Source: Gnetum montanum (Eukaryota > Plantae > Gnetophyta). Taken from it: 64,000 nucleotides of DNA. Below, piece by piece: positions 14,711-55,435 of this stretch (its first letter is position 1; each line of letters begins with the position of its first letter). Made by a program: the position numbers and the translations under genes. The stretch lies in assembly GCA_015680685.1 (NCBI GenBank), contig MNCI01000651.1:1603832-1667831 (forward strand). The letters are read 5' to 3'. Under the pieces are notes generated by a model. The model was not told where the DNA came from, did not search any database, and saw nothing but the letters and a program-made list of their open reading frames with translations.

Positions 14711-16244
14711 ATTGGGACTCCTGTATGTGGTAGACCTTCATGCAAATGGAGTAGGATGTGTTCCTTGCTATCCATTCACCAAGATGCTAAAAAAGAACAA
14801 GTTTTTCTTTGGAAACCACCATCATTAGTCCCAGTGAGTAGGAGAAACCTGAAATAGAGACTGAAAGAGTTACTAGAATGGATCTAGGAATTGACATCGG
14901 CATTGCATGTTGTAATGAACCCCTTACAGGGGTCACATGAATTGATGTAAAATATGGTGATCTAAATGGAGAAATGGGAGATGAAGGAGTGGCAGTTTGT
15001 TCAAAATCTACACCTACGGTATTATCTCTATCCATTTTCTAGATGAAGTACCTTCAACCTGTAGATCTACAATACAAAAAGAGAACATCACACAAGTAGA
15101 AGGAAGAAAAAGGCAAGTATTCGAACTTTAAAATTAATTAGATTTGCCTTTGGTTCCTTTCCTTTATCGTTTCTCATATCTTTTTTTTGGTACTTAAAAC
15201 TACTAGGCTAGTAGAACCTTGCCCAACATCTTACCTTTGAAAAAACAAAATTTATTAGAAAAACAAATATGCAAAGTAAAAAAATCAAGTGGGCTATTAT
15301 CTATATATATATATATAGACAAAAAATTTAGAGTTGGTAAGTTTGATTTATGCTTTGGACTAAACCCTTCCAAAGGATGAAGCACCTTGAACATCTTATG
15401 TTTGTGCACCTCCAATTTGTGCACTTTGGATTATTTCATTCTATAGCCTAGATTGCATTATTAATAAATACATGAAGAATAATAAGTAATAATAGAAATA
15501 TAAAATGTATAAACATATAAAAATACCTCACTAGTTCCCTCTTGATTTTGAGTCTATTGCAAAGCCATTTGACCCTTCTTGCCACCCTCGATTTTACTCT
15601 TTACAACTCTATCCTCTTTAAGAAATTTGGGATGTAAACTAGGATTTCAATGACTAAAAAGTTTAGTTGAAGGGTTGTAACTTAGGATTAAATACATGAT
15701 CAAGGGAATGCAACATATGGTATAAGGTTTATTATGATTTTTTTGGATAGCAGCAGCTTCATTCATGACATGGTACAAGGTAGAAAAACAAGACAAGGAA
15801 CGATTATAACTCTACCAATTTTGGCATGATGGAGGAAATAAATGGAATAAGCACTAACATAAGTCTAGTGTTTATGCCATAAGACCTTACTATGAATGAA
15901 TTGACACAAATCAAAGTGAATTTCATTAATCAGATCACCACAAAGGAATTGACTTTTGCTGTTGGTTGTGGTAGGACCTACCATGATGCTGCACAGTAGG
16001 GCTCGTAGGCCTTGTTGTGCAGTGATGTAGTTGGCCACTAACTAGCTCTAATGGCTAACAACCACAACATGCCATTAGGTCATCAAAACCCTTACCGTTG
16101 CCTGGCACTTCATCACCATGCTACTGCCACTATGCTACCTCTGCATAGGTGCTGCTCCCACTACTTCACCTCTACACACGCACCATCATCCATCCACTGC
16201 CCTCTGTACATATCGCTGCCTATGCATGAGCCATTTGTTAGCGC

Positions 16245-16895
16245 CATCCATAAAGGAAATATTTGATGCTCTGTAGGCACTGATAGTGCTACCCATAAAG
16301 GGCACCTTTGATGCTCTAAGAGTATGGATGGTGCTATTCATAAGGGCATCTTTGATGCTCCATGGCATTGATGGTGTCACCCATAAAGGACACCTCCTAC
16401 ACTCTATGGGCATTGATAGAATTCCTCATAAAGGACACCTCCAGCACTTTATGAGCACTAACAACTTTATCCATAAAGGGCACCTCTAGCACTCCATGAG
16501 CATTGATGATGCTGTCCATAAAGGGCACCTCTAGCGGTTTGCATTTATCAATAATTCCATCCATAAAGGACACCTCCAATGCTCCATGGGCACCGATGAC
16601 ACCATCCATAAAGGATAGCTTTGATGCTTCGTGGCCATTAATGATGCTGTCCATAAAGGGCAACTTTGATGCTTCATAGGCACTAACAATGTTGTTCATA
16701 AAGGGTACCTTTGGCGCTCTGCAGGCACCAACAATGCTATCCATAAAGGGCACCTTTGGTGCTTCGTGAGCATCAATGGTGCCATCCATAAAGGACACCT
16801 CTAGTGCTCCATAGGCATTGATAGCATTGCCCATAAAGGCCACTTTTGACACTCCATGGGTGTCAATAGTGCCATCCATAAAGGCTAGCATTGAT
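16245..16895. repeat. Tandem array of a 45-bp unit, about 15 copies
   Basis: CCATAAAGGRCACCT-type cores recur at 16426, 16471, 16516, 16561, 16606, 16651, 16696, 16741, 16786 and so on. The overlapping ORF shows 15-aa periodicity. Confidence 0.95.
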
Positions 16896-17481
16896 ACCCC
16901 TTGGCATTAGAAACCCTTACCACTGACACACACTATTTCTGCTAGTGCTGTGAGCCACAAAAGTCCCACTTGCTTTGCGTAGACCCTTGCATGAGGCACA
17001 CAAGCCCTGCTTGGGATCAAGAAAGTCCTTGGAAATCTATGTTGGCCTTGCACATGCCATGTTGGCCCCTTCGCAGGCTTTGCAAGCCATGCACAAGCTG
17101 CATAAGCCCTCACATGTGCCATGTGGTAGAGAGAGAGAATAAAAAACAACACTAATCTACTTTGCTCTAGGTTGCCTCTTAGACATTAATTTGCACTAGC
17201 TGATGATGATCTTCACCCAATGTCACTGATCTACTCTTGACACCACCACTAGCACATCATTGTAGCCATTGTTGCTAACATCCCTGCCTTGTTGCATGAC
17301 AAAAAAATTCTCCAACAACTAACAAAAGATTCAAAATCTTCATCAACTGACAGAAAATTCAAAATTTCCATCAACTAATGGAAAATTCAAAATTTCCATC
17401 TTTGAATTGTTAGTTTAAACTAAGAATGCAGAAAAGTAATTTAAAAAAATATAATTTTGCGCATTGGCAACATGTGAGATA

Positions 17482-17548
17482 AAAATTTTGTAATTAAGCA
17501 CACTTGTCTTGAAGTGTTACTGGGATGGATGACCTCTTGAGAAGTCTC
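17482..17548 (+). promoter_or_regulatory. 5S rRNA-derived Pol III internal control region (A box-IE-C box), copy 1
   Basis: AATTAAGCACACTTGTCTTGAAGTGTTACTGGGATGGATGACCTCTTGAGAAGTC aligns without gaps to recalled plant 5S AGTTAAGCGTGCTTGGGCGAGAGTAGTACTAGGATGGGTGACCTCCTGGGAAGTC. Confidence 0.78.
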
Positions 17549-17861
17549 AAAAATCATGTAGTTTTTACAAACTTAAAGTAGCCATAATTTTTGATTTTGG
17601 AGTCCATTTTCAACAAAAAAAAATGATTCTAATTGATTTGAACCTTGTAGACATGATGAAATGGTCAAATTTAGCTCTTAGATAATAGAAAATTAGTTTT
17701 AATCCATGATTTAGGATCCCAAAATAAATTAGAATTCCATGGTTGAATAGAAATTCATGATAGTTCTAACCTCCTCTAGTACCAATTAACTATCTTGAGA
17801 TCCATAATGAGGGCCATAGAGGCTAGGGATTGCCAACATGCCTAATTTCTTTAATTTACCA

Positions 17862-20800
17862 ATGTCTAGAACGTGAAGAATACATTGGAGATCAATGTAG
17901 ATCCAAGTCAATGACTAGGTGAATGAACTTAATGATCAAATTAATCAGATCAAGGGTATTCAAGAAGAGCTTCATCAGTCAAATCAAGGGCTCAAGATGG
18001 AGATGCAGAATATGTTCAAAGAAATTAGGAAATTATCCCAAAGTTTAGAATATAAATAGTTAGATGTGCAAGGAAAAATGGATTTCTTTGTAGAATCCAT
18101 CAAGCAATTAATCAACTATCTCACCCAGGCTTAAATTCTCAACCATGTTCTACCAAGGGATCAATGCCAAGATCAGTCCCCACATTATAGAGAATAAAAT
18201 CAAGATGAACTTCCCTCTAGGAATCTACATAGAAACCAACCCCCACATTTTGGACATTAAGATGCTAGTGTTCCTTCATTAGATTAAAAAATAGAAATAA
18301 AAGGTGAGGGATACTAGAATTGTCATAATGCACCCAGAGAGTCACTAACACAAGTTCATATTAAGAAGGTAAAATTAGATCATTATGATGGAGCCCCTAA
18401 ATCAAGTGCCAAGGCAAAAGATTGGCTTAATACAATGAAAAATTACTTTAATATGTTGAATCTGTCAAGCCAAGAATGTTTAGAAGTTATCTCCCTATAC
18501 TTAAGAGGAATTGCAACAACGTGATGGAATGGAATGAGATCTCAAGGTTTGATTACAAATTGGCTCAACTTTTGTTGAGATTTTGAACAAAAATTTGCAC
18601 CAAATTCTTTCCTTAAAGAGCACAAGATGAGATTTGATTCCTTAAGATTGGGATGGCGATCTATAGAAGATTACTACAAGGAATTGTGTGATCTCTCTTG
18701 ATATGTAAGCCATTGAGATAAGGGAGAGTTAGCTTCAAAGTTCATTGGTGGACTACATGCACAATTGTGTCCCAAACATGAGCATATAATCCTTAAATAA
18801 TTGATGAAGCCTATAGAATTGCTAAGGATTATGAAGAATTGAATCAAGTATGAACTATTCTTCGACAAGCAATGGTAGAAGAAACACTAATCAAGAGAGC
18901 TTGATTAGGATCAAGATGTCTTGCTTATGGCAAAGATCTTTTTAAATGAGACTATCCAGAATTGTGAGCAAAGGTACAAATAATCAATTAAAATAGGAAT
19001 TAAAAATCCAACTCAAACATGCATAAAGAAAAAATCAAAACCACCACCACAACTGTGAAGATGATTTCTACATCAAGTTAGGTTTGCAAAAATTTCAATT
19101 TTCTTTATTTATTTTTGAAGGTTCAATTAAAGGTAAAAAAGTAAATTTTTGATTGATAGTGGTGCGGGTGATAACCTTATTTCTCTAAAGTCAATTAAGT
19201 TATTGAAATTAAGTTTATGTTCCAAGGAAATTATTAAGGTAGAACTTATAGATGGAATGATTGTGAGTAAGCATACTAGGTATAGAGAAATCACCTTTAC
19301 TTTGTAAGACATGCCTTTTGTTGATGAATTTTTTGAATTTAAATTAGGTGATGTCAATGCAATATTAGATATATCTTCTACCCACTTTGAAAATCATCTT
19401 TTAAACGTGCCAACCACTAATAGAGTTAGGGTTTTACAGGGGGTACGAATAGCAAAGCAAATTCATACGATAATTATTAAACAAGCCAAGAGATTAGTCA
19501 AGAATGATGCTATGATGTTGATTGTCAAAGTAACTTGACCTTAGAAATCTTTAGGTATTGAGATTCCAAAAGAACTTAAGAAATATAAAGACTTAGTATT
19601 TGGTGAAATGAGTGAGCTACCTCCAAAAAGAAATGTTGAGCATGTTATTGATATTTCTCTTGGTGTACAACTTGTTTCAAAAGCCCCTTATAGATTTTCC
19701 ACTTTTGAATTATGAGAATTAAAAGTTTAATTAGATCAATTGTTGTAAGAAGGAAATATTTGACCTAGCATATCACCTTGGGGTGTATTAGTCTTATTCA
19801 TTAAAAGGAAAGATGATACGTTAAGATTATGCATCAATTATAGGGAATTGAATAAAGTAATGATTAAAAATACTTGTCCCTTGCCTAGGATCGATGACTT
19901 ATTTGAAAAACTTATAGGTAGATGTTATTTTTCAAAGATTGATTTAAAATCAAGTTACAACCAAATAAGGATTATGGAAAAAAAAAAAAAAGACATTGAG
20001 AAAATTGCATTTTGAGCTAGATATGAATTACATGAATTTGTAGTGATGGCATTTAGATTAACTAATACACCTACAATATTCACGGCATTAATGAGTAATA
20101 TCTTTGGTGAATACCTTGATCAATTTGCTATAGTATTTATGGATGATATACTTGTTTGCTCTAAGTCAAGAGAAGAAGATGTTAAACATTTAAAAATTAC
20201 AATGGAAGTCCTTAAAGAACATCTATTGAAAGAAAAATTAAGGAAATGTGAACTCTTTATAGAAGAAGTTTCATACTTAGGCCATATAGTTTCTAAGAAA
20301 GGATTACAAGTGGATCTAGCAAAAGTTAGTGCAATTCAGGATTGGCCATAACTAAAAGATGCCATAGCAGTTTGTAGTTTCTTAGGCTTAATAGGTTTTT
20401 ACCAATGTTTCATTAAAGATTATTCTACTTTGGTAGCCTCCTTGACTAACCTTTTGTAGGAAAAATATGTGTTTAAGTTTGATAAAAAATGTAGGGAAGC
20501 TTTCCTCAAATTAAAGATTCCACTCAGAATAGAACCTATTCTAAGAATTCCAAATGAAGAAATACAATTTGAAGTATCTATGGATGCATGTGGAATAAGA
20601 ATCGATGTAGTTCTTTCTCAAGAAGATGAAGTGGTATATTATGAATCTGGTAAATTGTGAGGAGTTGAGGTAAATTACTCAATCCATGATTTAGAGTTAT
20701 TGGTAATTGTTCATGCTTTGAAAGTTTGAAGATACTATCTTTGTGGAAAAAGATTTGTATTAAAAATACATTAGAAAAGTTTAGAATAATTGTAGAGAAA

Positions 20801-22350
20801 ACCTTTTTTGAATACTCGACAATGACGATGGGTAGAATTATTGGCTAAATATGATTTTGAAATCAAATATATTCCTAGAAAATAGAATGTAGTAGCTAAT
20901 GCCCTTAGTCAGATGTGGAACTTGATGATTAATTTTGTGAAAACTCCCATGGAAGAAGAAATTAAGGAAAAAATAAAAGAAGATCCTTACTTTTAAGAAT
21001 ATTTTAACTAATATTTCTTCTAAGCCTCATTATCAACTTGATCCTAACAGTTTATTGATGAAGAGACAAAGAGTGTGCATTCCAAAAGGAAATTGGAGAT
21101 TGAAGCTATTGTGTGAAGTTTAGGAAGTACCATATGTAGGGCATCTAGGATATATCAAGACTTATATGATGATATAAAATTTCTATTTTTAGCCTAGAAT
21201 GAAGAATGATGTATCCTTGTACATTAAAATCTGCCCAACCTACCAAAGAATAAAAGTTAAATAAAAGAAACCTAGTGGGTTACCATGGCCTTTAAAAGTC
21301 CCAACCTAGAAATGGGAAGACGTTACCATGGACTTCATTGTGGGATTGCCAACAACCAAAAAGGGAAATGATTCGATCTTAGTAGTGGTTGATCATCTAT
21401 CAAAGATGGTACATTTAATAGCTTTGAAATTTGCAACCATAACTGAAGAAGTAGCCTAGAAATTGATATGAGAAGTATTTTGATTACATTAAGTGTCCTA
21501 AATCTATCACTTCAGATTAGGGTCCCAAGTTTATATGTGCATTTTGGCAAACTTTCTTGAAAGAACTTGGAACCCAAATGAAATTTAGCATAACTTACCA
21601 CTTAGAGATAGATGGAGAAATCAAATTTCTAAAAACAATATTAGAATATATTCTATGAAGTTATGTTGGGAGGGAACCAAGGACATGGAAGAATTACTTC
21701 CACTTAGCAGAATTTGCCTATAATAATAATTATCAAGATTCCATACATCGAATGCCATTTACAGTGGTATATAGACATAATTGTCGCACATCACTAACTT
21801 GGGTAGATCCAACCTTAAGAACCAAATGGAAGAAGGAAGAAATGAAGACAATGGAAAATATTGTTACAAGAATTAAATAAAACTTACAACCTACCCAAGA
21901 AAAATATAAAGGATATGTGGACCAACATCGACTTGAGAAGGAATTCCAAGTGGAAGATCAAGTACTATTGAGAGTAAAATCCATTGGAAGTTTCCTTAAA
22001 TTTGAAAAATATACTAAGTTCGTTCTAAGATATTGTGGGCCCTTTGAAATCTTTGAAGGAATTGGTGAAGTAGCATATGGATTAAATACTCTGTCAAACT
22101 TAAGAATTCACCCAATTTTCCATGTAAGTTTGCTGAAGAAATTTTATGAAAATGATGTGCAATACATGCTAGATTGGAATACTTTGCCCTTGAGATCCAA
22201 TGCCAAGTTTGAGGTCAAACCAATTACAATTAATAATCACTAAACCAAGAAGCTTCAAAATAAAACTATCAATGAAGTACTTGTTCAATGGTCAAATTAT
22301 GATCAACAAACTTGGGAAAACAAGAAGTTCATTCTTAACACTTACCCCCA
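17862..22350 (+). pseudogene. gag-pol: gag-pol with C-terminal chromodomain, degenerate
   Basis: Gag AKDWLNTMKNYF; protease FLIDSGAGDNLIS (~19145); RT IVFMDDILV (20043-20351); [13 protein letters not shown] and RYCGPFEI..HPIFHVSLLKK; chromodomain-like KLQNKTINEVLVQWSNYDQQTWE (~22250-22320). Confidence 0.92.
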
Positions 22351-22564
22351 AATTTTTGATCATCATGATATTGAATGATAAATTGTATTTATTATTAAGG
22401 TAATAAATTATATTTTATAATTCTAGTCTTTTGTTTGTACAGATGATAAGGAGGATAATAATTAAGTTGAAGGTAAGGAGCTTAATTGAGGAAGTAGCAA
22501 CAACTGAGTAGTTGGATATAGAGGAAGCGCTCAAGGATGAGCTAGATGCTTAAAGGGGGTAGAT

Positions 22565-23058
22565 TGTGATGTCCCATCCCTTGTTAAGGGTGGAAATGTA
22601 TTATAAATAATATAAGAAACCTTCAAATGTAGGGGTGCCTCATTATGATGAGTTATGATTATATATGTACCCTACAGGAGTGGGTTTGACCTATTCCATT
22701 TAATGTCAGGTTTAGAGGTTGTGCTAATTATGGAGTTGCAAAGCCTAGAATGGTAAGTGATGGGAGCCAGGTGAATCAGGATCAGAAGGGATTGATCACC
22801 CCTTTGGCTGGATAGCCTAACCATGGTGGTAGTGTTGGATTGCCTCTAAGACTTAAGTGGCATGGGAAGATAACCCAGAGGGTGTTATAGTATACCACTC
22901 TAATTAATAAAATTTATCTATATTTTTCCTTCTCATTAGGTGTACTAGTTATTCATTTATCAAGTATTTTATGATATTTCCATTATAATGCTTACAAATG
23001 TGATGAATTAAATGATGAATGATCTTGTTTTTATGACATATGGAAATGGGATGTCACA
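22565..23058 (+). repeat. 3' LTR of the chromovirus (494 bp)
   Basis: TGTGATGTCCCAT..ATGGGATGTCACA terminal inverted repeats directly after the PPT. Shares blocks with the LTRs at 29628 and 34675. Confidence 0.9.
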
Positions 23059-25263
23059 CTTTGACTATCTTAAGCAAGTGCTAAAATGTTTTTTGGAGAT
23101 AAACTTAAGGCTCAATTAGTAGAAGAGCCATCTAATGGTTGAAGAAGGCATAGTCTTGGGGCACTGAACCTTAGAAGAAGGGATCGAGATTGACCTAGAG
23201 AAAGTATGGGTCATCCAAGGAATCACAAGATAACCTGAAATGTTTAAAGACATGAGGTCATTCCTTGGACACATTGGTTACTATAGGTGATTCATTAATA
23301 ACTTCTTCAAAATTGCCAAGCCATTCATAGAATTAACCAAGAAGGATGCACACTTTGATTAGTTTAAGAAATGTGAGCATGAATTCTAATAATTAAAGTA
23401 AAAGCTCATAGAAACTCCTATTCTACATGCTCCAGATTGGTCTAGATCTTTCCACATTATGGTAGAAGCATCCAATTATGCATTGGAAGTAGTGCTCACA
23501 TAATTGGATGATAAAAAATGTCCATACTATATCCATTATATGAGTAGAAGCATTGCTAGTACAGGGGTAAATTATACCACCACTAAGAAGGAGCTCCTGG
23601 CATTGGTGTACTCCTTGGAAAAATTCAGGCACTATGTGCTTGGATATAAAATATTTGCGCACATGGATTACAATGCTATCCATTTCCTGATGAACAAGCT
23701 AGTAGTGAGTCCTTATTTCATTTGGTAACTAGTGATTTTGCAGGAGTTTCATCTTATAATGATGGATAGAAAGAAAACTAAGAATGTATTTGTTGATTAC
23801 TTGTCTTGGTTGTGCTAGGATAGCAAAAAGGATGAGGAGCATGTATCTGATCAATTCTATGATGAACTTCTCTTTGCAAAATCTCTTGAAGTTCAAAATT
23901 TTATGGGTACCAACTGGTACAATGATTTCCTCTCTTAGCTTCTCACTTAGGAGACTCCACAAAAATGGGCTAATAAGAAGAAATAATAGTTTCTTGACCA
24001 AGCCAAACACTACATAGAAATCTAGGGCAATCTTTACAAGGTTTGTGTTGATGGGTTGGTGTGATGGTATGTACTTGATGCTAATCAACTATGAATCCTC
24101 TAGGATGCTGATGAAGATGCTTGTGGGAGCCATTATGCAAGCAAGAGGACTATTATGAAGATCCTCATGGTAGGGCACTTTTGGCCCATCATTTTCAAGG
24201 ATGCCTATTATTTTTCTCATTCATGTGAATGTTGCCAATGAGATAGAGGAATGAAAGCTCGAATGGAAGGGTCTCAATAGTGGATTTAATCACTAAAGCC
24301 CTTGGACATATGGGGCATTAACTTCATGAGATCGATCACACCCATGTTCAATGGAAGGCATACATCACTGTAGTTGTCAACTACTGCATTAATTAGGCCA
24401 AAGCTATAGCCATCACCAATTTTTCATCTTCCACTACATCATAAGTGATCTAGATAAATGTGATAAATAGGTTTGGTGTGTCAAGAACACTTATTTATGA
24501 TAATGGAACTATTTTATAGGGGCTATTTTTTTAAAAACTAATGTAATGCTTGGAGGTTCAACATAAATTCACAACCCCCTATTATCACCAAGCCAATAGT
24601 GAAGTTGAATTTACCAATAGGAAGATAATCCAAATACTAACATGTATAATTAGTAAGCATAGGAAGGATTGGAGCACGAAACTCAATGAATATCTATGGA
24701 TTTATTGATCTACATGGAAACTTCCTATAGGGTACTCTCCTTCTAAGTTGGTGTATGGGAAGTTACATATACTTCCAATCTAAGCTGAGCTTCATACACT
24801 TTTAACTAGTTCTGAGCTTGACCTTGATCTCAATCTAGCACAATGAAAGCACCTCATGACATTAAATATGTTAGATGAAAATTGATAAGTATCCTTAACT
24901 ATGAATTAAGTGCACAAGGCACATGCTAAACAATATCATGATGCATGAATAAGAAGAGTTAAGTTTCAACCTAGCAATAAGGTCTTCTATTAGAATTCAA
25001 TGCATGAATCCCAACACACTAAATTCCAAATATTGTGGAAAGGACTTTACATAATTCATCCAAGTTTTCCTTTAGGTGCCATGACCATTTACCACCCATC
25101 AAGCTTAGAGAAACAACTGCTAGTAAACATCCAACAAGTGAAGCCTTTCATAGAACCTCAAATAACTAGTGGTGCTTACACCTCAACACCTACGTAAGCA
25201 CCCTCTATTTTTTGGATCTCTCTCTTTCAACTTAGTTTTGGGGGAGATGACCATCCATGCTAA
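23059..25263 (+). pseudogene. pol: Partial pol (RT end, RH, INT) of element B
   Basis: ORF fragments 23504-23728 and 25000-25197 (KQLLVNIQQVKPF) are homologous to pol of elements A and C. Confidence 0.9.
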
Positions 25264-26172
25264 CACCTTATGAAGACTAATCCATTTTTCACCTTTTTCT
25301 TTTGCAGAATTCCTCATATGTTTTCATTTTCTTGACTATTTTATCAATTATTTTATATACTTTTAATTTTATCTATCTTATTAGTATTTTATCTTAACTT
25401 TAGAAAATCTTTAATTTTTCTAATATTTTTGTTAATACTAGGAGTTAAAGAATGTAGCTATTAATGTAATGATTGATTTGCTAAATGGACAAATTTTTTG
25501 TCTTTGGATTATGGCCTCTATTTACAAATTGTTAGTTTTCTAATGGTAGCAGGTAGTGGGACCATGACATCTATCTATTCCATCTATTCTATAGAAGTTA
25601 TGCATCTTGGAAGCATGAGGTCATTCTAATTAAAATTGAAAATAACCAATGATCTCGCTACTTAACAAACTCAGAATAGATTAAGAAGGTATGAGAAATG
25701 TGTGACTTCAAGGGGACTTGTCTTATTTTGTTTACAACTTCTTTCTCAAGTTTAATGATTCTTCTCCATTAGTATATCACTACTCCTACTATTGACCATT
25801 AAAGGAAGCATGTATTTGCATGGTTTTTGAATGTCATGCTACTAGAGGTGAGCTCAACATCATGGGGAATCCAAACGTTTAGTTTCTTGTAGAAGATTTT
25901 TCTATCTCCCCATGGTTAACCTATTTAAATAATAATTAAGATCATAATTAAAATTAACTACCATAAAGGGCTAATACCATTACATAAAATTTAATAGATA
26001 ACAAATAAAATATTATTAAAATAATATAACTTGCCAAGATCACAAACAAAGCATTAAAGTAATCAACTCTTAACACCTAAGATATAACATAACCTAGTCT
26101 AATGAGAAAGATATTAAAATAACTAAGGATTATAAAGTAAAGGCTAATCATGGGCTATGTTTTTTATCATAG

Positions 26173-29627: not shown

Positions 29628-30197
29628 TGTAATGTCCCCATTCCCAAATGATGCTGTTGCATAACCAAGATGGTGCCTCTTCATAAAGAGTGTTACTACT
29701 ATTGTAACAAGACCCAAAAGGATAGTTGTAATTAAGACCCTAAAGGGCACATTGTAATAACAAATGTGTCTCATAAGGTGACCTTTGGGGATTTGACCTA
29801 AGGTAGTTATATCTAGGCTTAGAGGCTTTTCCAGCATGGAGTGGTGGAGCCAGTACAGGCAAGTCATGAGAGCCAAGTGAAGTAGGATAGGAAGTGGATT
29901 GGCCATCCCTTTTGGTCAATTGTAGGCCTAATTTTGATGGTAGTGCTGGATTACCTCTAAGAAATAGATGTTAAAGGAAGAAAACCCAAGGCATACTCTT
30001 AGAGCATGATTTAGATACTCTATTCCATATGAATAAAGCATTCTTTTTTCTCTTTCTACATTTTTCTTATTATTTTCTTTATGCTTAATGTTGAATGTTA
30101 CATATATTTGACATTTGGTATATTTTCTTTTTAAGCATAATGTCTAATATCACATATATTTGACATTTTTGATGACATCCAGGAATGGGATGTCACA
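29628..30197 (+). repeat. 5' LTR of the CCR4-carrying element
   Basis: TGTAATGTCCCCATTCC..GGAATGGGATGTCACA, a direct repeat of 34675-35247. About 84% identical over the first ~140 bp by hand count. Confidence 0.93.
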
Positions 30198-31669: not shown

Positions 31670-31945
31670 TCAAACACCAATGGTGCTTCCCATAATGGCC
31701 CATTTTGGCACTCTGTGGGCAATGATAGCAACACCCATAATGGCCTATTTTGCCACTCCATGGGTACCAATGACACTACCCATAACGGTCCATTCTAGTG
31801 CTTTGCAGGCATCGATTACACCATCCATAATGGCCCATTCCAATGCTCCGTAGGCATCAACGGTGTTGTCCATAATGGCCCCTTTTGATGTCCTGCAACT
31901 ACTGATGGTGCCATTGATAATGACCCCTTTCGGTGCCCTTTGGCC
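31670..31945. repeat. Tandem array of a 45-bp unit, about 6 copies, related to 16245-16895
   Basis: CCATAATGGCCC-type cores recur every 45 bp. Confidence 0.9.
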
Positions 31946-32577
31946 TGTAGAAAATCCTTGCTGAAAACATGTGTGTAGGCTTCCTTTATTTAGTGTAGCC
32001 CTTGCACAGGTTGTGTAGGCCTTGCTTTGGGCTCCCTAGGCTCTTGTGTGGGCTATGCAGATCCTTGTGTTGGCCCTACTTGGGGCTGTTCAGGTCCTAG
32101 GCATGGGATGCATTGGCCCCTATACGAGCTAAGTAGGCCCACATGTAGGCCATGATGGCCCCTATGTAGGTCCTCATGTGGGCCATGCAACTAGATACAA
32201 ACATCATCGCTGTGCCACACCAATATACTCTAATGCACCTTTGCTAGCCATTACTACCTTCTACCTCTTTGCATAACCATCCATCGCCATTGAACAAGAA
32301 CACTGCCAATGTTGAGTGCAAGCCAACACCATTGTGGAAATGTTTATCACCCCTGTATTTGCTTAATAATAGGAAAATTGTTCATCAACAGATGAAACAT
32401 TTGAATTTTTTAGTTAATTAGTGAAAAATTTGAAATTTCCATCAAGTAATAGGAAATTAAGATTCTCATTAGCTAACTAGAAATTAAAATTTCCATCTTT
32501 AAACCATTAATTTTAAATTAGGAACACAAGAAATTTTTTTTAAAAAAGAATTTGGTGCATTGGTAGCATGTGAGATA

Positions 32578-32650
32578 AAAATTTTGTAATTAAGTGTGCT
32601 CATTCTGGAGTAGAACTGGGATGGGTGACCTCTTAGGAAGTCTTTTTTTT
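32578..32650 (+). promoter_or_regulatory. 5S rRNA-derived Pol III internal control region, copy 2, followed by a T8 tract
   Basis: 32588-32642 matches the recalled plant 5S segment at 43/55 positions without gaps. The C box GGATGGGTGACC is perfect. Confidence 0.85.
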
Positions 32651-33128
32651 GTGCCAAAGGTTCTAGACTCTAGAAGCCATAACAATTGACTTTGAAAGCT
32701 TTTTTGAGCAAATGAAGAGTTTTTTCCTAAATTTTTTACCCTTCTAAACTTAATGATGAGGTTAGAATTTATCATCTGGGTACTTGAAATTTGATGATAT
32801 CATGAAACTATGCCCTAAAAGCCAAACACATAAGGATAACTAATCATGCCTTGTTGGGACTAACAATTTAACCTTATGGGCCTTGAGATCAAATGCTTAA
32901 TCTTTGCCTGTAGTCATAAGATCTCTATAGCATGTCATTAGTTACACTATCGGAGTTAGTATTCTTAAGAGAGGGGGGTGAGGGGTGGGAGGGAAGGTAG
33001 AAAGGTTATTAAGAAAGAAGTAATGTAGTAAATTATTTGGAGAATCAATTGATGTATTAGTTCAATGATCAAGAAGAATATATAGATACATCAATTCATC
33101 CTTCAACCAAATCATATGATAGAACAAC

Positions 33129-34265
33129 ATGGAGACTCAAAATCTCATTTTGACAAGGCGTATGATACCCATGAAGAGAAATTATTGAGAAGAGGATCCA
33201 AGATTGAGAATGAAAGTTGCAACATACAACATGCTTTCAAGATCCTTAGTGAGAGAGAAACAACATTTGCTATGTCCACCATGGACCTTGGATTGGCATG
33301 AATATTGATACCTATTGATCTAAACAAAGTTACAAGGATTGGATGTTGATGTTTTATGTCTACAAGAAGTTTTTCCATGAGAATTTTTATACCAATTCCA
33401 ACCAGACTTGGGAAAGATGGGATACATAGGTATTTATAAGCAAAAAGATTCTTGTGGAAATTCTTCTTTTGAATCATATAGATTAGCCTATTGTAGAAAT
33501 CACAACATGGATGTTTGTTCTATCTTTTATAAAGAATCCAAGTTTGAATTAGTACAAAGATTCAAAGGGAGTTTAGAAAATATGATTTTTGAAATTCTAG
33601 AACTTCAAACCATGGAAAAGAAAGAATAGTCAAGATTTTAGAAAAATCACATAGCCTTGAAAGTAATTCTAAATATCCATCTATCAGGGAGATGTATGTG
33701 TAGTCAATACACATTTGATTGCTAAAAAAACATGTGCAGATGTCAAACTATGTCAAGGAGCATACTTGATTAAGAAAATAGAAGAAAGTTTGAAGAATAA
33801 GTTATTCCTAGTGCCATTTGTTCTTTCTGGAGACTTAAATGCAAAAGTTGGAAGTAGTATTTATCAATTCATAAAATATGGATGTGTAAAGGAATCCTTG
33901 GGAGATGAACTTGATTTGAAGAAGATGTTTCTGTTTACTTTGAATGTTCAATAGATAAATCAGATTTTAGAATTCAAGAATAGATGATGTTGATGGATAG
34001 TACTCATCAAGAATCATACTTTAAGAATTACTCTATTGTGATTAATGAGGATGGAGCACCAACATTCTTCATTGAGATCTTAGATTATATTTGGTATGAT
34101 GTCCAATTCTTCCAAGTTACCATGTTACTTGAATTGATTTCTAGAGAAAAAATGAAGAAAAATCAAGATTAAGCCCTTCCATTCTAAACAAGATCATATG
34201 ATCATATACCACATATGGAAGAATTACAATTACTCCCATCAGTTCGTAAAGTTGACGAATATTAG
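33129..34265 (+). pseudogene. CCR4: Intronless CCR4/nocturnin-family EEP deadenylase (catalytic domain), disrupted by stops and two frameshifts
   Basis: Colinear motifs: KVATYNMLS, CPPWTLDW, DVDVLCLQEV, LGKMGYIGIYKQK, DVCSIFYKESKF, NHIALKVIL, VCVVNTHL, DVKLCQ, PFVLSGDLNAKVGSSIYQFI, ILDYIWY, ALP and SYDHIP. Confidence 0.9.
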
Positions 34266-34674: not shown

Positions 34675-35247
34675 TATAACGTGCCCATTCCCAAACGATG
34701 TTGCTACATAACTAAGATAGTTTCTCTTCATAACAAGTGTTACTGTTATTGTAACAAGACCTAAAAGAGTAGTTGTAATTAAGACCTAAAAGGGAACACT
34801 GTAATAAAAAATGTGTCTCTCAAGGTGATCTTTGCAGATTTGACCAAAGGCATTTGTACTTGGGCTTAGAGGTTGTGCCAACATGGAGTGGCGGAGCTAG
34901 TACAAGCAAGTCACAAGAGCTATGTGAAGTGGGATAGGAAATGGATTGGCCATTCCTTCTAGTTGGTTGTAGGCCTAACGATGATGGTAGTGCTAGATTT
35001 TCTCTAAGAGATAGACATCAAAGGAAGAAAACCCCAAGGAATACTCTCAGAGCATGATCTAGCTATTCTATTCCATATCAATAAAACATTCTTTCCTCTC
35101 TCTTTCTACATTTTTCCTGTTATTTTCTTTATGCTTAATATCAAATGTTACATATATATGACATTTGGTATATTTTCTTTTTAAGCATAATGTCTAATAT
35201 AACATATATTTGACATTTTCCATGACATTTGGGAATGGGATGTCACA
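34675..35247 (+). repeat. 3' LTR of the CCR4-carrying element
   Basis: Follows the PPT, is a direct repeat of 29628-30197, and ends GGGATGTCACA. Confidence 0.93.
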
Positions 35248-39082: not shown

Positions 39083-42000
39083 TGTGGGAAAATGATCTAA
39101 AATTATTTTTGCATCTTTTTGCCAACATTGTGTTTATTTTGGATTCTTCCTCACTAATTTTGGTATTTTTCATGGCTGGCATGTTGTAAATTTATCAAAT
39201 TTAATTTAAGGAGGCTCATTGTTTTGGGGCTTTCCATGTTTAATCCTATTCCTAGCCTTATATATGTGTTCCTTTGGAAGGACCTTGGGCATCGGTGTGT
39301 GTGATTACAAAGTGTTATGAGCTTTTGTTGTTGGAGGAATTGTTGGTGGAAGTTTGGTGATCTGTTGGTGAAATGTTGGAGTTGTTGTATTATGGAGCTT
39401 GCTATTATCTCTCCCTTTCCTTTTCTACTACGAGAAAGGCAAATCCTCATTCTTGTGTAGTAGGCATATTGCCAAACCACATTAAATCTAGGTGTTCCTT
39501 TTGTATTGTTTGTTTTGGTTTGCATGTTATTCTTCATTGATTTCTTCTTGCACCATCACTATTGTGTTTTTGAGTTTTTTACATTTAGTTGTTTCACCAA
39601 CTCACCAAGTTTGGTTGGGCTTTGTTATTTTGCTACTATTTCATTCTATGCATCAATTGGTATTGAAGTGATAGTTATGTGAAACACTATTAGAATGGCC
39701 TCAAGACTTTCAAATGCAAAGTTTGAGGTGGAGAACTTCAACGGCAAGAATAACTTTGGCTTATGATAGAGTAAGGTCAAAGATCTACTCATTCAACAGG
39801 GCTTGCATAAGGCATTGTTGGGTAAGGTTAATAAGCCTATTAGTATGTTAGATGAAGACTGGGAAGATTTGGATAAGTCTTGTAGATCAAGTTTTATTCA
39901 ATGTGGCAAAGGAGGATTCTACTATTAGGTTATGGACTAAGCTGGAGAGCTTGTACATGATAGAGTCCTTGACAAATAAGTTGTATTTGAAGACAAAGCT
40001 CTATGAATTCAAGATGAAGGAAGATACGTCTATTGTAGATCATTTAAATGCTTTGAATAAACTCATTTGTCATTTTTCAAGCATCAAGGTTGAATAGGAG
40101 AGGAGGATTAGGCTCTTATTCTTCTTATGTCACTTCCAACTTCTTATAAACCTTTTGTTACAACACTACTCTATGGTAAGGACACCATAGAACTAGAAAT
40201 AGTGACTACAACTCTCTTGTTAGAAGAAAGGATAAATTCTACAATTGTAGAATAGACTGCTAAAGGTTTGATGGCTCGAGGTCATACCATGGAAAGAGGG
40301 TTTGAGAAATGTCCTTTTAGATGAAAGTCTAGATCTGGAAAGGACAACAAGAAGAATCTGGAATGCCATTATTTCTACAAGAAGGGGCATTTCATGAAGA
40401 AGTGTAGAAAGCTAAAGGAAAAGAAAGAAAACAAGCAAAAACATGAGGAGGCATCTAGTCCTAATAATAAAGAGGAGGTTAATACTATTAACATCGAAAA
40501 ATTAGAAGATGTTCTTGTAGCCACAAAATTATTTGAACAAGGTGAGTGGATTCTCAATTTAGGAGCTTTCATGACATATTACTCCTCACAAATCTTGGTT
40601 TTATACAAGTTGATGGCGGATCACTCCTAATGAGAATGTATGATGAAGTAAGAATTATGTATGTTGGCATGGTTCGAATGAAGTGTCAAGATGACACTAT
40701 TAGGACTCATATATGTGAAACATGTGTTGAAAATGAGGAGGAATCTCATCTCTTTGGGAGCTTTGGATGGATTGGGTTGTAATTTTGTTGGAGATAGTGG
40801 CTTTCTCAAAGTTAGTAGAGGATGCCTAGTAGTTTTGAAAGGTCACGAAGGAAGGAAACCTCTACAAGTTGCTGGGACATACAGTTGCTAGAGATGTGGA
40901 TGCATTTGATGGACACGTTGCTGCTACATCAATGTTATGGATAGACATTTGGGTCATGTTAGTGAGGATGGATTGAAAAAGCTCTTGGAGAATGTACTTC
41001 TTCTAGGTTTTTAGAAAATTGAGTATGACTTTTGTGAACATTGTATGTATGGTAAACAATGTAGAGTGAATTTTTCTCGTAGCACATTGAGAAGTAGAGA
41101 TGTGTTGGATTTGGTGCATAGTGATGTTTTGGGTCCTTCTCCTCAACCATCTTTGGGAGGTGCATGATACTTCATCACCTTCATTGATGATACATCAAGA
41201 AAGGTATGGGTTTTTCCTCTTAAAGGTAAATCAGATGTTTTTCAAAAGTTTATGGAATTTAAGGACCATGTAGAAAGAAGTACTAGAAAGAGGGTTAAAT
41301 GTATTTGAATAGATTATGGTGGTGAATACATCCCTAAAGTATTTGAGTCATTTTGCAAATATGAAGGTATTAGAAGATATCTTACAATTCTAGGTACTCC
41401 TCAACAAAATGGAGTTGCAGAAAGAATGAACCATACACTTTTGGAACATGCTAGGATCATGATGAGTTTTGTGGGAATGAACAAAGTCTTTAGGATGGAG
41501 GCAATTAACACTACATGTTACTTGGTGAAACAAACCCCATCTCTTGCTATTAATGGCAAGATTCTAGACAAGGTGTGGAGTGGAGTTTTAGGAAAATATG
41601 AACATCTTAGAATCTTTAGTTTTTTAGCATATGCTCATGTTCTAGACATTCAAAGAAGCAAGCTTGATCCAAAATCCAAGAAATGTGTCTTTCTTGGATA
41701 TGTAGAAAATACCAAAGGATATAGGCTTTAGGATCTTGATTCAAGAAAGGTCATCTTCAGTAGGCATGTCATCTTCAATGAGTCATCCATTCAGCAAGGT
41801 GACAACAAGGATGAAAATGAATGAAGCTAATGTAGAGAAGATGCTTAAGTCAAAATGAAGACTTTTAGAAATGACGATGAGAAGAAGAATGAAGAGGTAT
41901 CACAACAATGGAAGCTTGGTGATACAAAGATTGAGCTAAGTATCCAAAACCTCATGTTGAGCCTAGAAGCTCTTCAAGACCTAACAAGGATATGTTGGTA

Positions 42001-44233
42001 GTCAGGTATGATGATGAGTATGCATTTCTATCATTGATTGTAGAAGTAGATGAGCCAATTTCTTATTAAGAGGCATTGAAGAGTGGCCAATGTAAGAAGT
42101 GGCAAGCTTCTGTGGAGGAGGAAATGCACTATCTTTTGAAGAATCGAACATGGGATTTAGTTAAGCTTCCTAAAGGAAGGAAAGCCATAGATTACAGTTG
42201 GTTATATAAGGTAAAGCATGCAACAATTGGACAAGTTGATTACTTTAAGGTAAGGTTGGTTGCCAAGGGTTATCTTCAAAATTTTGGAATAGATTTCTTT
42301 GATGTGTTTACACCAGTTGCAAAACTTGCAACCATTTGAGTTATTTTGGTGTTAGCTATTGTGGAAGATCTTGAGTTAGAGAAAATGGATGTTTGAACAA
42401 CCTTTTTACATGGAGATCTCTAAGAAGAAATCCACATGAAGCAACTAGAGGCATTTGTGGTTAAAAGAAAAGAAGATCTAGTGTACAGGCTCAGGAAGTC
42501 CCTCTACAATTTGAAGTAAAGTCACAGATAGTGGTACAAGAGGTTTAATTATTTCATGTGTAAGATTGGTTTCTAGAAGAATCCTACAGATCCTTGTGTG
42601 TACAATTACAAGTGTGCATATAGTACTATTGTGAATTTGATCTTATATGTGGATGATATGAATATTACAGGAAATAATAAGGCTAAAATTAAGAAGTTGA
42701 AAGAGCTTTTATCTTCAGAATTTGATATGAAGGATTTAGAAGAAGCCAAACAGATTCTTGGCATGGATGTCACTCGAGATAGAAAAGAGAGGAACTTGTG
42801 GTTATCTCAAGAGCAATACATCAAGAAATTTTTTCAAAGGTTCAGAATGTAAGGTGCTAAACTAGTTAGTAATCCTATTAGTATGCATTTTAGATTATCT
42901 TCTCAGCAATGCCCAAAGATTGAAAAAGAAGAGGTAGATATGTCTCGAGATCTTAACTCCAATATTGTTGGTAGTTTGATGTATGTCATGGTGGAAACAA
43001 GACTAGAAATTGCATATGCAATAGGTCTTCTTAGTAGATACATGAAAAATCCTAGCAAGAAGAATTAGGAGCAATTTAGTGAATCCTTCATTACTTGAAA
43101 GAAACATCCAAATTCTGCATTTGCTATAATAAACTTAGAAATACTATTATACATTATTGTGATTCAGATTTTACTGATGATCTAGATAAAAGAAAGTCTA
43201 CATTAGGTCATGTGTTCACCATAGCTAGAGAACCTATTTCATGGAAGTCAAAGCTGCAATTGGTGATGGCCCTACAACAATGGAAGTAGAATACATTGCT
43301 ACTTCATTAGCATGCAGCGAAATTATTTGGTTGATGAATCTCATGGAAGGATTGGGACAACATCAAGCAAAGATATCATTGTTAAGTGATAGTTAGAGTG
43401 CTATTTTATTGGCACATAATTTAGCCTTGCATGAAAGGTCCAAACACATCCAAGTAAAGTATCATTTTGTGTGGTAGCTAATTGTTGAAGGATGTGTTCT
43501 TTTTAAGAATATTTCTACTTTGATAAATCCAGTAGACATGCTAACAAAGAAACTTTAGTTGGAGAAGTTCAATGATGTTTGCACTTTTTTCCACTTCTGT
43601 AAGAATAGTTGAATAGTTGGGGATTTTCTGTAGAAAGGAATTTTGGCTCAAGCTGGAGATTGTTAGGAAATGACCCAAAATTATTCTTGTGTCTTTTTGC
43701 CAACATTGTGTTTATTCCTAATTCTTCCACACTAATTTTGGTATTTTCTATGGTTGGCATGTTGTAAATTTATCAAATTAAATTTAAGGAGGCTCACTGT
43801 TTTGGGGCTTTCATGTTTAATCCTATCCTTAGCCCTATATATGTGTGTGTTTAGAAGAACCTTGGGCATCGATGTGTGTGATTACAAAGTATTAAGAGCT
43901 TTTGTTGTTGGAGGAATTGTTGGTGGAGTTTTGACAATCTATCAATGAAATGTTGCAGTTGCTGTATTGCGAAGCTTGTTGTAATCTCTCCCTTTCCTCT
44001 TCTACTCCAAGAAAGGAAAATTCTCATTCTTGTGCAGTAGGCCCATTGCCAAACCATGTTAAATCTAGGTGTCCCTTTTATGTTGTTTTCTCCTATTTGC
44101 ATATTATTTTCCATTGATTTCTTCTTACACCATGGCCATCATGTTCTTAAGTTTTTTTGCAGTCATTCAGTTCACCAACTCACCAATTTTGGCTAGGCTT
44201 TGTCCTTCTACTATGATTTCGTTCTACGTATCA
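39083..44233 (+). mobile_element. Complete Ty1/copia retrotransposon (Tnt1/Tork-like), decayed
   Basis: LTRs 39083-39655 and 43661-44233 (TG..CA); PBS TGGTATTGAAG at 39658; PPT-like tract before 43661; TSD GTGGG/ATGGG (4 of 5). Confidence 0.95.
39695..43600 (+). pseudogene. gag-pol: Copia gag-PR-INT-RT-RH polyprotein, degenerate
   Basis: KFEVENFNGKNNF, SLTNKLYLK, RSKLDPKSKKCVFLGY, RLVAKGY, LYVDDM, YCDSDF..DLDKRKST. Confidence 0.95.
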
Positions 44234-44519
44234 ATGGGCTACCTGATGAAAGGTAGCATGTTGATGGGCCTGCGTGGACCTCTTTTAGGTGCTACAACAA
44301 TTTTAATATATATATATAGCTATTAGTTGGAAATCATGTTGATTTTTTTATATACCTACATATTAGTAAATAGAGGAAGAGATGGGAAAGAAGAGATTGT
44401 CATGTGGCTTAATTGATTAACTGATACAAATATAGTATTGAACAAACATGGATGTAATGATGTGTTGAAAAATATTGATTTATTTTTTTATTATTTTATT
44501 TGAATTTTATCATGTGCAA

Positions 44520-47195: not shown

Positions 47196-47200
47196 GTCAA

Positions 47201-49716
47201 CCATTAAAATATTAAATTTATCATGCGTTGCTGTAATGGGATGTTCAAGAAAAAACTTAGTGGCCATGGCATGACACATGGTGTTGATTCAAGCTTTAGA
47301 ACCTTAAAAAAAGGATTCCAATAGTGCCATCATCTCGGATCTATTGACCTTTAGGATTAAACCCTCACATCCTTAAGAAGTAATATTGGCATCCATGGCC
47401 TAGGTAACTTGAACATAACTCATATGTATGGTAGATTTGGTGTTAGGGTTGCAATGGCCATGTGCATTGAAGTATGGATTTTAGCAAGTTTAATGGAATA
47501 GTCCATGAGGATCATTTCATAGAGCACCGGGCTCATCTGAGAATTAATACTCTTGGATTCATGGCATTCATGGCCGTTGACAATGACACATTTACAAGGA
47601 ATCTGCTACTACAAAGTTTCTTCATCCACAAAATCCTTGACATCAATGCACTTGGAACACTTGTGCTACGTACCTTGGATGAGCTTCAATGTGTTTCTAT
47701 ATGTTAGTATCTTAGCAGAGGTCATCATGGAAAATCATGATGGAAATGTGCAGAGGCTTGGTGGATGATTACTTGTCAATGATGATGCTCACATTGGCAA
47801 TGAAGATGATGTTGTTTTCTTTGATCTTTCATGTTGCAAAGTGGTATTGGAAAACTTAATTAAAAATTATGCACCACTACGCTCATCATAGAGGCAGAGA
47901 TGAAGTCACGAATAAGTGGTCAGTACCTTGCAGAGGCATGTGGAGTTAATGGAATATGTTGCAAACACATCATGCTTGCTTCTTGGTAGTTTGGTCATGT
48001 TTACTTTTGTGTTTTACACCCATGATTTTTTCCATAATATTATGATTTTACATTCCATACATTTGTATTAAGGTTTTGGTATGGAGTTATAAAATGACCA
48101 AAAAATAATAATCATAAAATGAAACTATGATATAAAATAGAAGGATAATAAAATATAATAAATAAATTTGAAAAATGAAGTTTAGATTGAGGGAACATAT
48201 GTAATAAACCATAGGTTGGCTATCTTGCATTTGTATCTGGGTGACCTAAAATTGAAGAAGACACCTTGAATTAGAGTTAGCTTTGCTTTAAAGGCTTAAA
48301 TTATGTTTTTCCCCATAGGAAGATATATTATAAGGGTTGATGTGCTAAAAATGGTGAACTCATATTAAGGATAGAGCCTCAAGAATATTAGGAAAAATAA
48401 AATAGAAGATTTATAAGTTAGTTATTGGACAAGACACTTGCCAACTATGGCTTAAATTTCTCATAGAAGTTATAACTTCTTAGGATGGTTATGCATTAAT
48501 CCCCTAGATATTTGTAACATTCTTAATGTCTCATGATGATTATAACTACCCTAATGCCACTATAAAAGGAGCTTCAAAGATAGAATTAGAGGAGGATTTG
48601 GGGGGAAAAGATACTTGAAAAAATATTGAAGATTGTAAAGCATGGCTTGCTAAAGACATCAATTCCGCTACTTTGTCTTAATCCTTTGAGTTTATTTCTT
48701 CCCATTTTGTTTTAGTTACTTAGCTAATGGTTTAGATAGTATTGTGCTTGGCATTTAATTTTTGGATTTTCTAGGTTTCTTTTATAGCTCTCCTTTTTGT
48801 AAAATATTAGACTTCTATTAGGTTTTCCATATAAGAGCTTATGTTATATTAGAAAAACATCTTGAGCAATTTAATAGTAATGAATTATAGAAATTGCTTG
48901 TTTGAGTCTAGGGAATTAAGAGAATCTTTAATACTTTGTAATGACTGGAATAACTTTATTTCTTTTAAAGTTTATTATCTTAATATTTCAATCTTAAAAT
49001 TGTTAAATTTTTTTGGAAGTTCTAGTGTTTGTAATTCTTGACCGATATTAACTAGCCAAATAGAAGCTTGTATTTTGTCATTTAGAAACGATTTTGGTAG
49101 TTAAATAAGAGTGTCTTTTATGAAATTGCTTATTGAGCTTAGAGGGTTTGAATGATTCATAATAGATTGAATTGGAATAGCTTTATTACAAAGTCTTTCC
49201 TCATGTCAATTTATCTTGCTTAAATGTTTAAGATTCTACATAAATTTACTTTTTTTGTTTGAAATCCATTGAATCTCACTCTATTTCTAGTTTTCTTGTG
49301 AAACTTTTTCTTTGGGGGAAATTAGGAGTAGATTGGCAGAATTGTGCTCAAGTATTTTTGTGAAATTATATTTGTTTCAAGTAATGTACTATAGGGACTA
49401 TGTAGACTAAGTGATTCAACAAAATAGGAATCTTCAACAACTCGTAGTATTTGAAAAAGCTAGCTGAATTTCTTTTATGATAGCCAATTACATTTTCATT
49501 TATAAATCCAATCATTTCAACATTCATAACAACAAACACATACTCATTATTAGTTCATTTCATAATCATTGAGTTTATTTAGAGGTATCTTGGCCTTGGT
49601 GTTGCCAGAACACTAGCAAGCACTGAAACCTTGTTTGATGAACACCTTCACATTCCATGATCCCAAAGTCATGAGATTAGAGGCACCCATGCATTAGTAG
49701 TCCAAAATGGCTAACA
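47201..49716 (+). repeat. 5' LTR of the Tat element, lacking its first ~300 bp
   Basis: Colinear with 56781-59274 and ends GGCTAACA before the PBS. Confidence 0.9.
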
Positions 49717-50084
49717 ATAGTTTTTTTGGTGCTAGAAGGAGGGCAAGAAACTTTGTTGCACAAAAATAGTTCATTATGTTCAAAGAGATTTATAGTTCTT
49801 GCACAACAATAGTATTTTTCATTGTTAGGAGAGCTTGAAAGAATTCGCTAGTATATTGAGTTAATGATCGAATAGACTAGTACTTTAGAATATTTATAAT
49901 TTTATGGTCATAAGTTTTATTATTCATTAGAAGAAGAATAGAAAAAGGTTCTTGAGTTTGGAACAAGTAGTGAAGTAAAAACTAGAAGAATAAAGAGAAC
50001 ACCTTTTTTTTTGGTTTATTAGTCTATAAGAGAAGGCCGAAGAAATATAAGAGTTCAACAATCAAAAGAAATTCTAGTAAAATT

Positions 50085-55380: not shown

Positions 55381-55424
55381 CTTTGGGCAACCACCCACAA
55401 TTTAATATATATATATGTGACCAA

Positions 55425-55435
55425 NNNNNNNNNNN
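55425..55435. other. Assembly gap (11 N)
   Basis: Run of N. Confidence 1.

Follow-up and report, generated by a model that had tools for sequence, protein, structure and literature searches.

A 5S rRNA-derived module in the internal leader of a chromovirus family, tentatively read as a once-selected Pol III unit

The stretch of DNA analysed here, called the window, is 64 kb long. It contains a non-autonomous chromovirus derivative of 5.6 kb in which a CCR4/nocturnin-type deadenylase gene (33129-34265) replaces gag-pol. The leader of this cargo element carries a segment resembling 5S rRNA, at a depth of 2.4 kb inside the element. The element and its leader comprise the following features.

29628..30197, plus strand: 5' LTR of the non-autonomous CCR4-cargo element, with a decayed primer-binding site and no clean target-site duplication
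31675..31923, plus strand: 45-bp tandem leader repeats, in common with 16233-16884
32397..32467, plus strand: 28-bp tandem repeats just 5' of the module, in common with 17298-17424
32512..32517, plus strand: TTTAAA at -27 of the predicted start (32539), also found in two family contigs
32551..32575, plus strand: 5' part of the module, non-5S or changed past recognition, the best-kept stretch between the two copies
32576..32645, plus strand: 5S rRNA-derived module, copy 1, 5S 38 to about 107, in the sense of the element (5S position is window position minus 32538)
32588..32599, plus strand: A box, 5S 50-61; position 51 has the A of the host lineage, and two changes are of CpG type
32608..32609, plus strand: core of the intermediate element (IE), 5S 70-71, intact in the alignment to L058, a full-length plant 5S gene
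32618..32627, plus strand: C box, 5S 80-89, identical to host 5S in the alignment
32643..32650, plus strand: T8 run, a candidate terminator; same-subtype family copies have T4-T5 at about +108 to +112
33129..34265, plus strand: broken, intronless CCR4/nocturnin-type nuclease cargo with stops and frameshifts
34675..35247, plus strand: cargo-element 3' LTR with a polypurine tract ahead of it; its identity to the 5' LTR is 85% (K2P 0.17)

At conifer substitution rates, the divergence between the two LTRs presumably represents tens of millions of years. The best relative of the cargo with a solved structure is CNOT6L (E 1.6e-11); 613 relatives, sharing 27-44% identity, came from a full HMMER search and none from a word-index search. 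A literature search found no report of a CCR4 cargo. The element appears to have inserted downstream of a pol fragment at 23200-25270. This fragment and those at 5568-7276 and 62746-63999 are related, decayed pieces of another gypsy lineage, two of them in opposite orientation. Other LTR elements, with LTR identities of 82-85%, occupy 10098-14715, 39090-44238 and 47199-59278; a copia-like one ends at about 14715, one has 570-bp LTRs and one has 2.5-kb LTRs.

The 5S origin of 32588-32642 is real. An earlier note on this DNA, made from its letters, had claimed a gapless 55-nt match to the 5S internal control region with 43 identities, and the same count (43/55, over 5S 50-104) was obtained against L058, a conifer-type gene a few letters from host 5S; by this resemblance the host is likely a gymnosperm. 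The five 5S loci tried gave 40-44/55, and over 5S 48-104 the match to L058 is 44/57, again gapless. The binomial expectation for the L058 match is ~3e-12 for the window, or 2e-10 once the choice of start is allowed for. This statistic is partly circular, because L058 was taken from metagenome contigs with 18 nt of the window as bait (127 loci were obtained, many of them plant 5S genes). The non-bait positions of 5S 48-104 match L058 at 26 of 39 in the same register, and the bait 18-mer occurs twice in the 64-kb window at up to three mismatches, versus an expected 0.01.

The host's own 5S sequence was read by hand from ~3,100 RNA reads of run X18, under the same species label, in which 5S sequence extends past the segment in either direction. 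Its differences from L058 are at 5S 49 and 51, which were read from loose ends, and at 95, which is inferred from the lack of a row at 32633 among the best-supported rows and from 2620 of 3351 reads in the 90-95% class. Copy 1 agrees with this host sequence at 47 of 57 positions (hand count), a comparison that the earlier note had proposed. Its observation that half of the mismatches fall between the A box and IE was reproduced (5/12 against L058, 5/10 against host 5S), as was that of a perfect C box, 32618-32627 being the host 5S sequence. The homology is a little wider than the 55 nt described earlier and runs from 5S 38 to about 107. The IE core is taken to lie at 5S 70-71. Box letters are those of supplementary table 2B of PMC10853983.

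One of the two 18-mer occurrences marks a second 5S copy, at 17480-17549, which the earlier note had overlooked. It precedes the coding region of a related element.

17414..17419, plus strand: TTTAAA at -29 of copy 2
17480..17549, plus strand: 5S module, copy 2 (5S position is window position minus 17442; RF00001 15.9 bits)
17492..17503, plus strand: A box of copy 2, from alignment
17512..17513, plus strand: IE of copy 2, damaged, from alignment
17522..17531, plus strand: C box of copy 2 with one change, from alignment
17562..17566, plus strand: T5 at +120 of copy 2, the place of the 5S gene terminator
17997..22372, plus strand: decayed gag-protease-RT-RNaseH-integrase region of the coding relative, with a chromodomain-like end, a Ty3/gypsy chromovirus, from Pfam and translation
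22565..23058, plus strand: the coding relative's 3' LTR, which has the same termini as the cargo-element LTR and 70% identity to it

Copy 2 agrees with host 5S at 45 of 57 positions (hand count) and lies 466 bp upstream of the gag ATG. The coding relative has the gag, protease, RT, RNase H, integrase order of a Ty3/gypsy chromovirus, with Pfam matches to Retrotrans_gag (E 5e-11), protease (E 0.001), RVT_1 (E 3e-22), RNase H (E 4e-20) and SH3_Tf2-1 (E 2e-15); the integrase core was recognized in translation only. Its chromodomain-like end gives a Pfam Chromo match under the cut-off (E 0.007), and the sole homolog found carries PF00385. The best matches of its RT are 40-51% identical and mostly from angiosperms, and its clade is provisionally taken as Tekay/Del-like from RT motifs. 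No 5' LTR of this element was found within the 64-kb window. In both elements, the 45-bp and 28-bp leader repeats vary in copy number and lie 5' of the 5S module.

Because the module also stands before gag in the coding relative, it is a leader trait of the chromovirus family and is older than the CCR4 capture. The earlier note correctly placed it in the internal leader ~500 bp upstream of the cargo (502 bp from the C box of copy 1 to the cargo ATG), but had tied it to the CCR4 element; that link was rejected on the strength of the second copy. The module is independent of the cargo. This bears directly on the reading that selection kept it as a promoter or enhancer for expression of the CCR4 gene, which the 502-bp spacing might suggest. 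The equivalent position of copy 2 before gag largely refutes such a role. Family depth also drops about tenfold just ahead of the cargo (32821-32860 versus 32861-32900), four T runs lie between module and cargo, Pol III RNA is uncapped (PMC12786077) and the cargo is broken, so that a cargo promoter is barely credible.

Neither copy is a 5S rRNA gene, which is full-length at 120 nt. No Rfam match over the whole 64-kb window reaches its gathering score. RF00001 is the top of six weak matches in 32000-33200, although its score for copy 1 (20.6 bits, E 0.22), like the 15.9 bits of copy 2, is under the gathering score of 38. The region of 5S 1-37 matches at only 9/37 and 10/37 positions in the two copies, and the five-helix 5S fold is absent from both by helix check and folding.

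Words of the cargo element are present in 17 DNA runs under six species labels, mostly in small shares; no RNA run is listed as carrying them. Six DNA runs under five species labels (A, B, D, E and F) were aligned to the two copies. Contigs aligning to copy 1 number 2336 and 2846 (organisms A and B), true 5S genes included, and those aligning to copy 2 number 533, 335, 773 and 385 (A, D, E and F), true 5S genes over 5S 70-104 included. In run X1, the element-only A-box part has a summed depth of 2,100-2,600, versus ~5.5 for a single locus, from read tables that lean towards the reference and, over 5S 70-104, also take in true 5S genes. Summed depth is not a copy number; the family has roughly hundreds of copies, of which two were aligned in full. 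No insertions or deletions in the module are listed across four runs, and the variable box positions are the CpG or CHG sites 57, 59, 60 and 80, plus 70 and 87. The lack of rows at 17447-17482 was given no weight as a sign of conservation, since local alignments are cut back at that stretch.

Three letters, T49, A51 and T95, are common to host 5S and both copies, with no alternative letter at 12% or more in four runs; the same is true of 5S 49-56 and 95 in the copy 2 family runs. A51 occurs in none of the 60 full-length 5S-like sequences fetched, and the donor was therefore a 5S gene of this lineage. The three letters could also be products of methylation decay; their fixation favors inheritance. 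The family has a G69-C106 pair that differs from the present host gene and is found in 28 of 60 5S sequences, and an older or minor host 5S variant is suggested as the donor. The host 5S A-box start (T49, A51) is itself unusual, and some host 5S reads of X18 have T28, a letter that would offset A51 in helix III.

None of the 127 metagenome loci with the 18-mer has the host A-box variant, and the gag-pol flank, searched with five pol proteins as queries, is absent from all of them. Viral contigs gave no match for a degenerate module pattern, and none of 97 RT pattern matches among them was confirmed. Several of the metagenome loci (L031, L121, L124, L025, L045, L017 and L047) are dispersed repeats with a 5S core and common non-5S flanks; they are Cassandra-like LTRs of another plant, and their flanks are unrelated to the module of the window. 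L048, L097 and L113 have 5S cores with non-5S 5' sides and come from other plants, the core of L113 being diverged and followed by T4. The 5S of L048 and L097 resembles the moss type. Others (L014, L016, L019, L021, L023, L032, L035, L043, L066, L067, L073, L085, L099, L108-L111, L118 and L120) have only the 5S C-box region in common, inside a different conserved repeat, and are probably animal SINE-like elements.

The module covers the same ~70-nt 5S window as the Cassandra core (PMC10853983), as the earlier note had recognized, and Kojima proposes SINE insertion as an origin of such modules (PMC10886601). The module might accordingly be the remnant of a Cassandra-like LTR or 5S-derived SINE nested in the ancestral leader. 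However, no second pair of LTR termini surrounds it, the only LTR ends detected being the four that belong to the cargo element and a further two in the coding one, and no flank similarity to the fetched Cassandra-like loci appears among the matches listed. Both copies lie in homologous leader sequence, whereas a SINE3 element would show independent insertion, a 5S head, a tail and a target duplication. No Cassandra has been reported from gymnosperms, nor is a 5S SINE known from plants (PMC10946416, PMC3692318), and the host-lineage letters point to capture within this lineage. Overall, a nested remnant is very improbable. The two 5S 18-mer matches of the window are both internal: the LTRs at 29628-30197, 34675-35247 and 22565-23058 have none, nor do the LTR elements at 10098-14715, 39090-44238 and 47199-59278.

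Between the two copies, the module (93 nt) has three transversions and no gaps, whereas the other homologous non-coding parts have 143 transversions in 986 nt and 42 gap openings. The transversions are distributed as 13/155 in the 5' flank, 38/172 in the 3' flank, 18/179 in the 45-bp repeats and 74/480 in the inter-subfamily LTRs. With module limits set after looking, and with poor flank alignments that inflate transversions, Fisher tests give p=0.0012 against all parts, 0.003 without LTRs and 0.18 against the 5' flank alone; the 5S part alone (2/68) gives p=0.005. In contrast, raw identity over 5S 50-89 is 27/40, versus 70% and 63% in the flanks. Thus, the module is better conserved than its flanks in transversions and gaps only. 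The best-conserved part (32/36) is 5' of the boxes, and the non-5S stretches at 32551-32575 and 17455-17479 are the best kept between copies, a pattern that a promoter-only model does not predict.

Changes from host 5S that are common to both copies, counted by hand from the alignments, fall at 0 of 24 box positions and 10 of 46 others (p=0.012). Leaving out position 69 and the CpG-type sites weakens the value to 0.087, and treating A58 as a family change weakens it to 0.083. Of the 19 differences between the copies, 16 are transitions, and in the genome CpG (0.14 of expected) and CHG (0.34) are strongly depleted; both copies are fossils decaying through methylation-driven C-to-T change. Selection, which the earlier note had read from the pattern of mismatches, thus receives modest support for the time when the lineage was active, from shared changes that avoid the boxes and from the few transversions and absent gaps, but not from the raw box identity.

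The same comparison can be read as neutral. A 5S fragment could have been captured once and spread late between subfamilies, by recombination of co-packaged RNA or by gene conversion, in which case low divergence would reflect youth. The cargo element's own two LTRs have 22/570 transversions, the same per-site rate as the module (3.9% versus 3.2%, p=1.0), so the module has diverged to just the extent of decay after insertion, which is what a late swap would produce. Sequence outside the boxes is conserved too, the box statistics are borderline, and no discrete RNA was found in the runs aligned. Gene capture by LTR elements is common, and this same family also captured CCR4. However, a mere passenger is harder to reconcile with the 10 shared differences from host 5S, all outside the boxes, since they imply that the module changed for a time before the split while its boxes were spared. 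The spacing is gapless, and TATA-like and T-run elements stand at 5S-like distances in both subtypes despite differing 3' flanks. We regard the passenger reading as doubtful, though it is the main rival.

Another possibility is a function in RNA, as a structured leader domain of the Pol II genomic RNA, for example a 5S mimic binding TFIIIA or ribosomal protein L5, or a packaging or dimerization signal. The module has the sense of the genomic RNA, and the upstream non-box part is the best kept (32/36). Helix IV pairs at 7/7 in copy 1 and 6/7 in copy 2. Helix II is possible in copy 1 with an 11-nt shift (7/7), but the shifted helix reaches only 4/7 in copy 2, and unshifted copy 1 reaches 6/7 by chance. 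Copy 1 can also close a 9-bp terminal stem, in which one change is apparently compensated between subtypes; a common family variant at 32555 breaks this stem without compensation. The G69-C106 pair looks compensated but can be inherited, because it is found in so many real 5S sequences (28/60), and it was rejected as proof of RNA selection. A complete 5S-like fold was likewise rejected: fold z-scores are -1.39 (copy 1) and +0.73 (copy 2), helix V pairs at 2/5 and 4/5, and helices I and III are incomplete. A role of this kind in RNA is improbable on present folding evidence.

The surroundings of the module resemble those of a 5S gene. TTTAAA stands at -27 in copy 1 and -29 in copy 2, with a chance of 0.6% per 7-nt window for a motif that was picked after looking and in two copies that are not independent. 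In plant 5S genes, a TATA-like motif occupies -28 to -23 and TTTT serves as terminator (PMC8264772). T runs occupy +105 to +112 in copy 1 (T4-T5 at +108-112 in the family) and +120-126 in copy 2; a run of at least four starting within 25 nt is expected by chance in 22% of cases in this sequence. The T8 run that the earlier note had seen after the match is present at 32643-32650 but is not conserved: of the 4367 depth units that the family has in X1 at 32645, 3918 (~90%) show G or A instead of T, so the T8 length is private to copy 1 and was rejected as a family trait. A T4 run stands at +44 in both copies, a place at which the pyrimidines of host 5S include C, and copy 2 has another T4 at +13. 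Because of these internal runs, a full RNA is not expected from either copy today.

Two of the seven RNA runs listed were aligned, X18 (2% read) and the oligo-dT run X21 (26% read). The 3351 partial reads of X18 are nearly all true 5S, none is at least 95% identical to the module, and depth at 32561-32580 is zero while ~3,100 true 5S reads aligned. X21 gave 13 reads on both strands, a few of them family-like and none 95% alike. Neither run shows a pile-up of read starts or ends at the module. Only the absence of abundant module RNA in these samples is thereby shown. The earlier note had envisaged binding of TFIIIA/TFIIIC that might yield a short Pol III RNA, an insulator or a chromatin-opening site. 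No discrete RNA appears in X18 or X21, and present-day Pol III activity finds no support in view of this result, of LTRs that are 15% diverged, of a cargo full of stops and of T4 at +44.

The 5S origin of the piece, its place before gag and before the CCR4 cargo, and its family-wide spread are observations. To account for them, we propose that in once-active source elements a 70-base 5S piece with A box, IE and C box was fixed in the chromovirus 5' leader and served as a self-contained type-1 Pol III unit under selection, the element benefiting from the complex bound there. Judged from sequence, this reading has a probability of about 0.45. Entry may have occurred by template switching onto 5S RNA during reverse transcription, a route suggested by a piece that has the same sense, is cut at both ends and carries no recognized spacer. 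TFIIIA, TFIIIC and TFIIIB would assemble on the module with the upstream TTTAAA, and Pol III would initiate ~50 nt 5' of the A box and terminate in the T run to yield an RNA of 110-125 nt. Such an RNA could be neither replication template nor gag message, so the likely benefit would be the bound complex itself, which might form a nucleosome-poor barrier that separates the coding region from the leader with its many repeats. Pol III genes serve as heterochromatin barriers in yeasts (PMC1635290). The position of the copies at the same relative place in related elements supports the Pol III unit reading. A primer-binding-site role was rejected, the module lying 2.4 kb from the LTR in the same sense as 5S RNA.

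A bolder form of the Pol III unit proposal is that, in an autonomous plant chromovirus lineage, the leader retained a functional 5S-type Pol III gene, which acted as a barrier against silencing and tracked the host 5S promoter variant. Such a leader module would then be raw material for Cassandra-type elements and the first 5S-bearing LTR retrotransposon of gymnosperms. Extrapolated this far from sequence, the proposal becomes unlikely.

Within the literature searched, which lay outside subscription journals, Repbase and gymnosperm repeat libraries, the position of the module has not been reported before: no coding LTR retrotransposon was found to be described with a 5S core in its internal leader. 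The 5S-bearing retrotransposons in table 2 of a 2024 review are all SINEs or tiny TRIMs that need the promoter, and none is from a gymnosperm (PMC10946416). A protein-coding LTR family must use Pol II; thus, selection on the module, if there was any, would have been for a different function. The finding also bears on the open question of a single or repeated origin of Cassandra (PMC10853983). The host-lineage letters show a separate uptake of the same 5S window by an LTR element, which weakens the argument from a shared window to a single origin. Hundreds of module copies would also confuse 5S annotation and FISH in this genus.

The nearest known systems are the Cassandra TRIMs, reportedly described by Kalendar in 2008. 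Both they and the present family are LTR retrotransposons with ~70 nt of 5S that include A box, IE and C box, and in both the changes gather between the boxes and follow host 5S, with statistics that are modest here. In Cassandra, the ~70-bp core lies mid-LTR and never at the termini, its letters vary between the boxes, and it mirrors changes in the host promoter (PMC10853983). The core is thus inside both LTRs, whereas here it is internal only. Cassandra is a non-coding element of 0.6-1 kb (563-968 bp in the supplement of PMC10853983), whereas here a 5.6-kb cargo element and a gag-pol element carry the module. The Cassandra 5S promoter transcribes the whole element from LTR to LTR and is a named exception to Pol II transcription among LTR elements (2025 review, PMC12786077); here a 5' LTR lies upstream and T runs follow directly, as far as sequence can tell. 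Under the proposed reading, the module would work as the Cassandra promoter does, but its position and the size of its carriers set it apart from Cassandra.

Ajax and Helenus (TRIMp3; PMC10886601) are also LTR elements with a small-RNA-gene fragment that keeps its Pol III boxes and has no functional RNA fold. Their 5S or tRNA pieces, however, lie within the LTRs of elements shorter than ~1.3 kb, and their autonomous partners are expected to rely on Pol II and to have little sequence in common with them (PMC10886601). SINE3, the animal 5S-headed SINEs, likewise place a 5S internal promoter on a mobile element, but are non-LTR, built of head and tail, independently mobile and without known plant members (PMC10946416). 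Plant chromoviruses (PMC3605345) have the same gag-pol order, C-terminal chromodomain-like region, polypurine tract and long leader. They differ in that the literature searched shows no 5S-derived module in their leaders.

P5SM, the plant 5S rRNA mimic in TFIIIA pre-mRNA, keeps an L5-binding fold. It, too, is 5S-derived sequence in a Pol II transcript; what is left in the present module is the promoter boxes, its helix III region having disappeared. Finally, the tRNA-gene and TFIIIC barriers of yeasts are host genes with type-2 promoters, and the available part of PMC1635290 includes no 5S-type or plant case, but they are alike in the essential point that a Pol III complex blocks heterochromatin, the role proposed here for the module in its once-active source elements.
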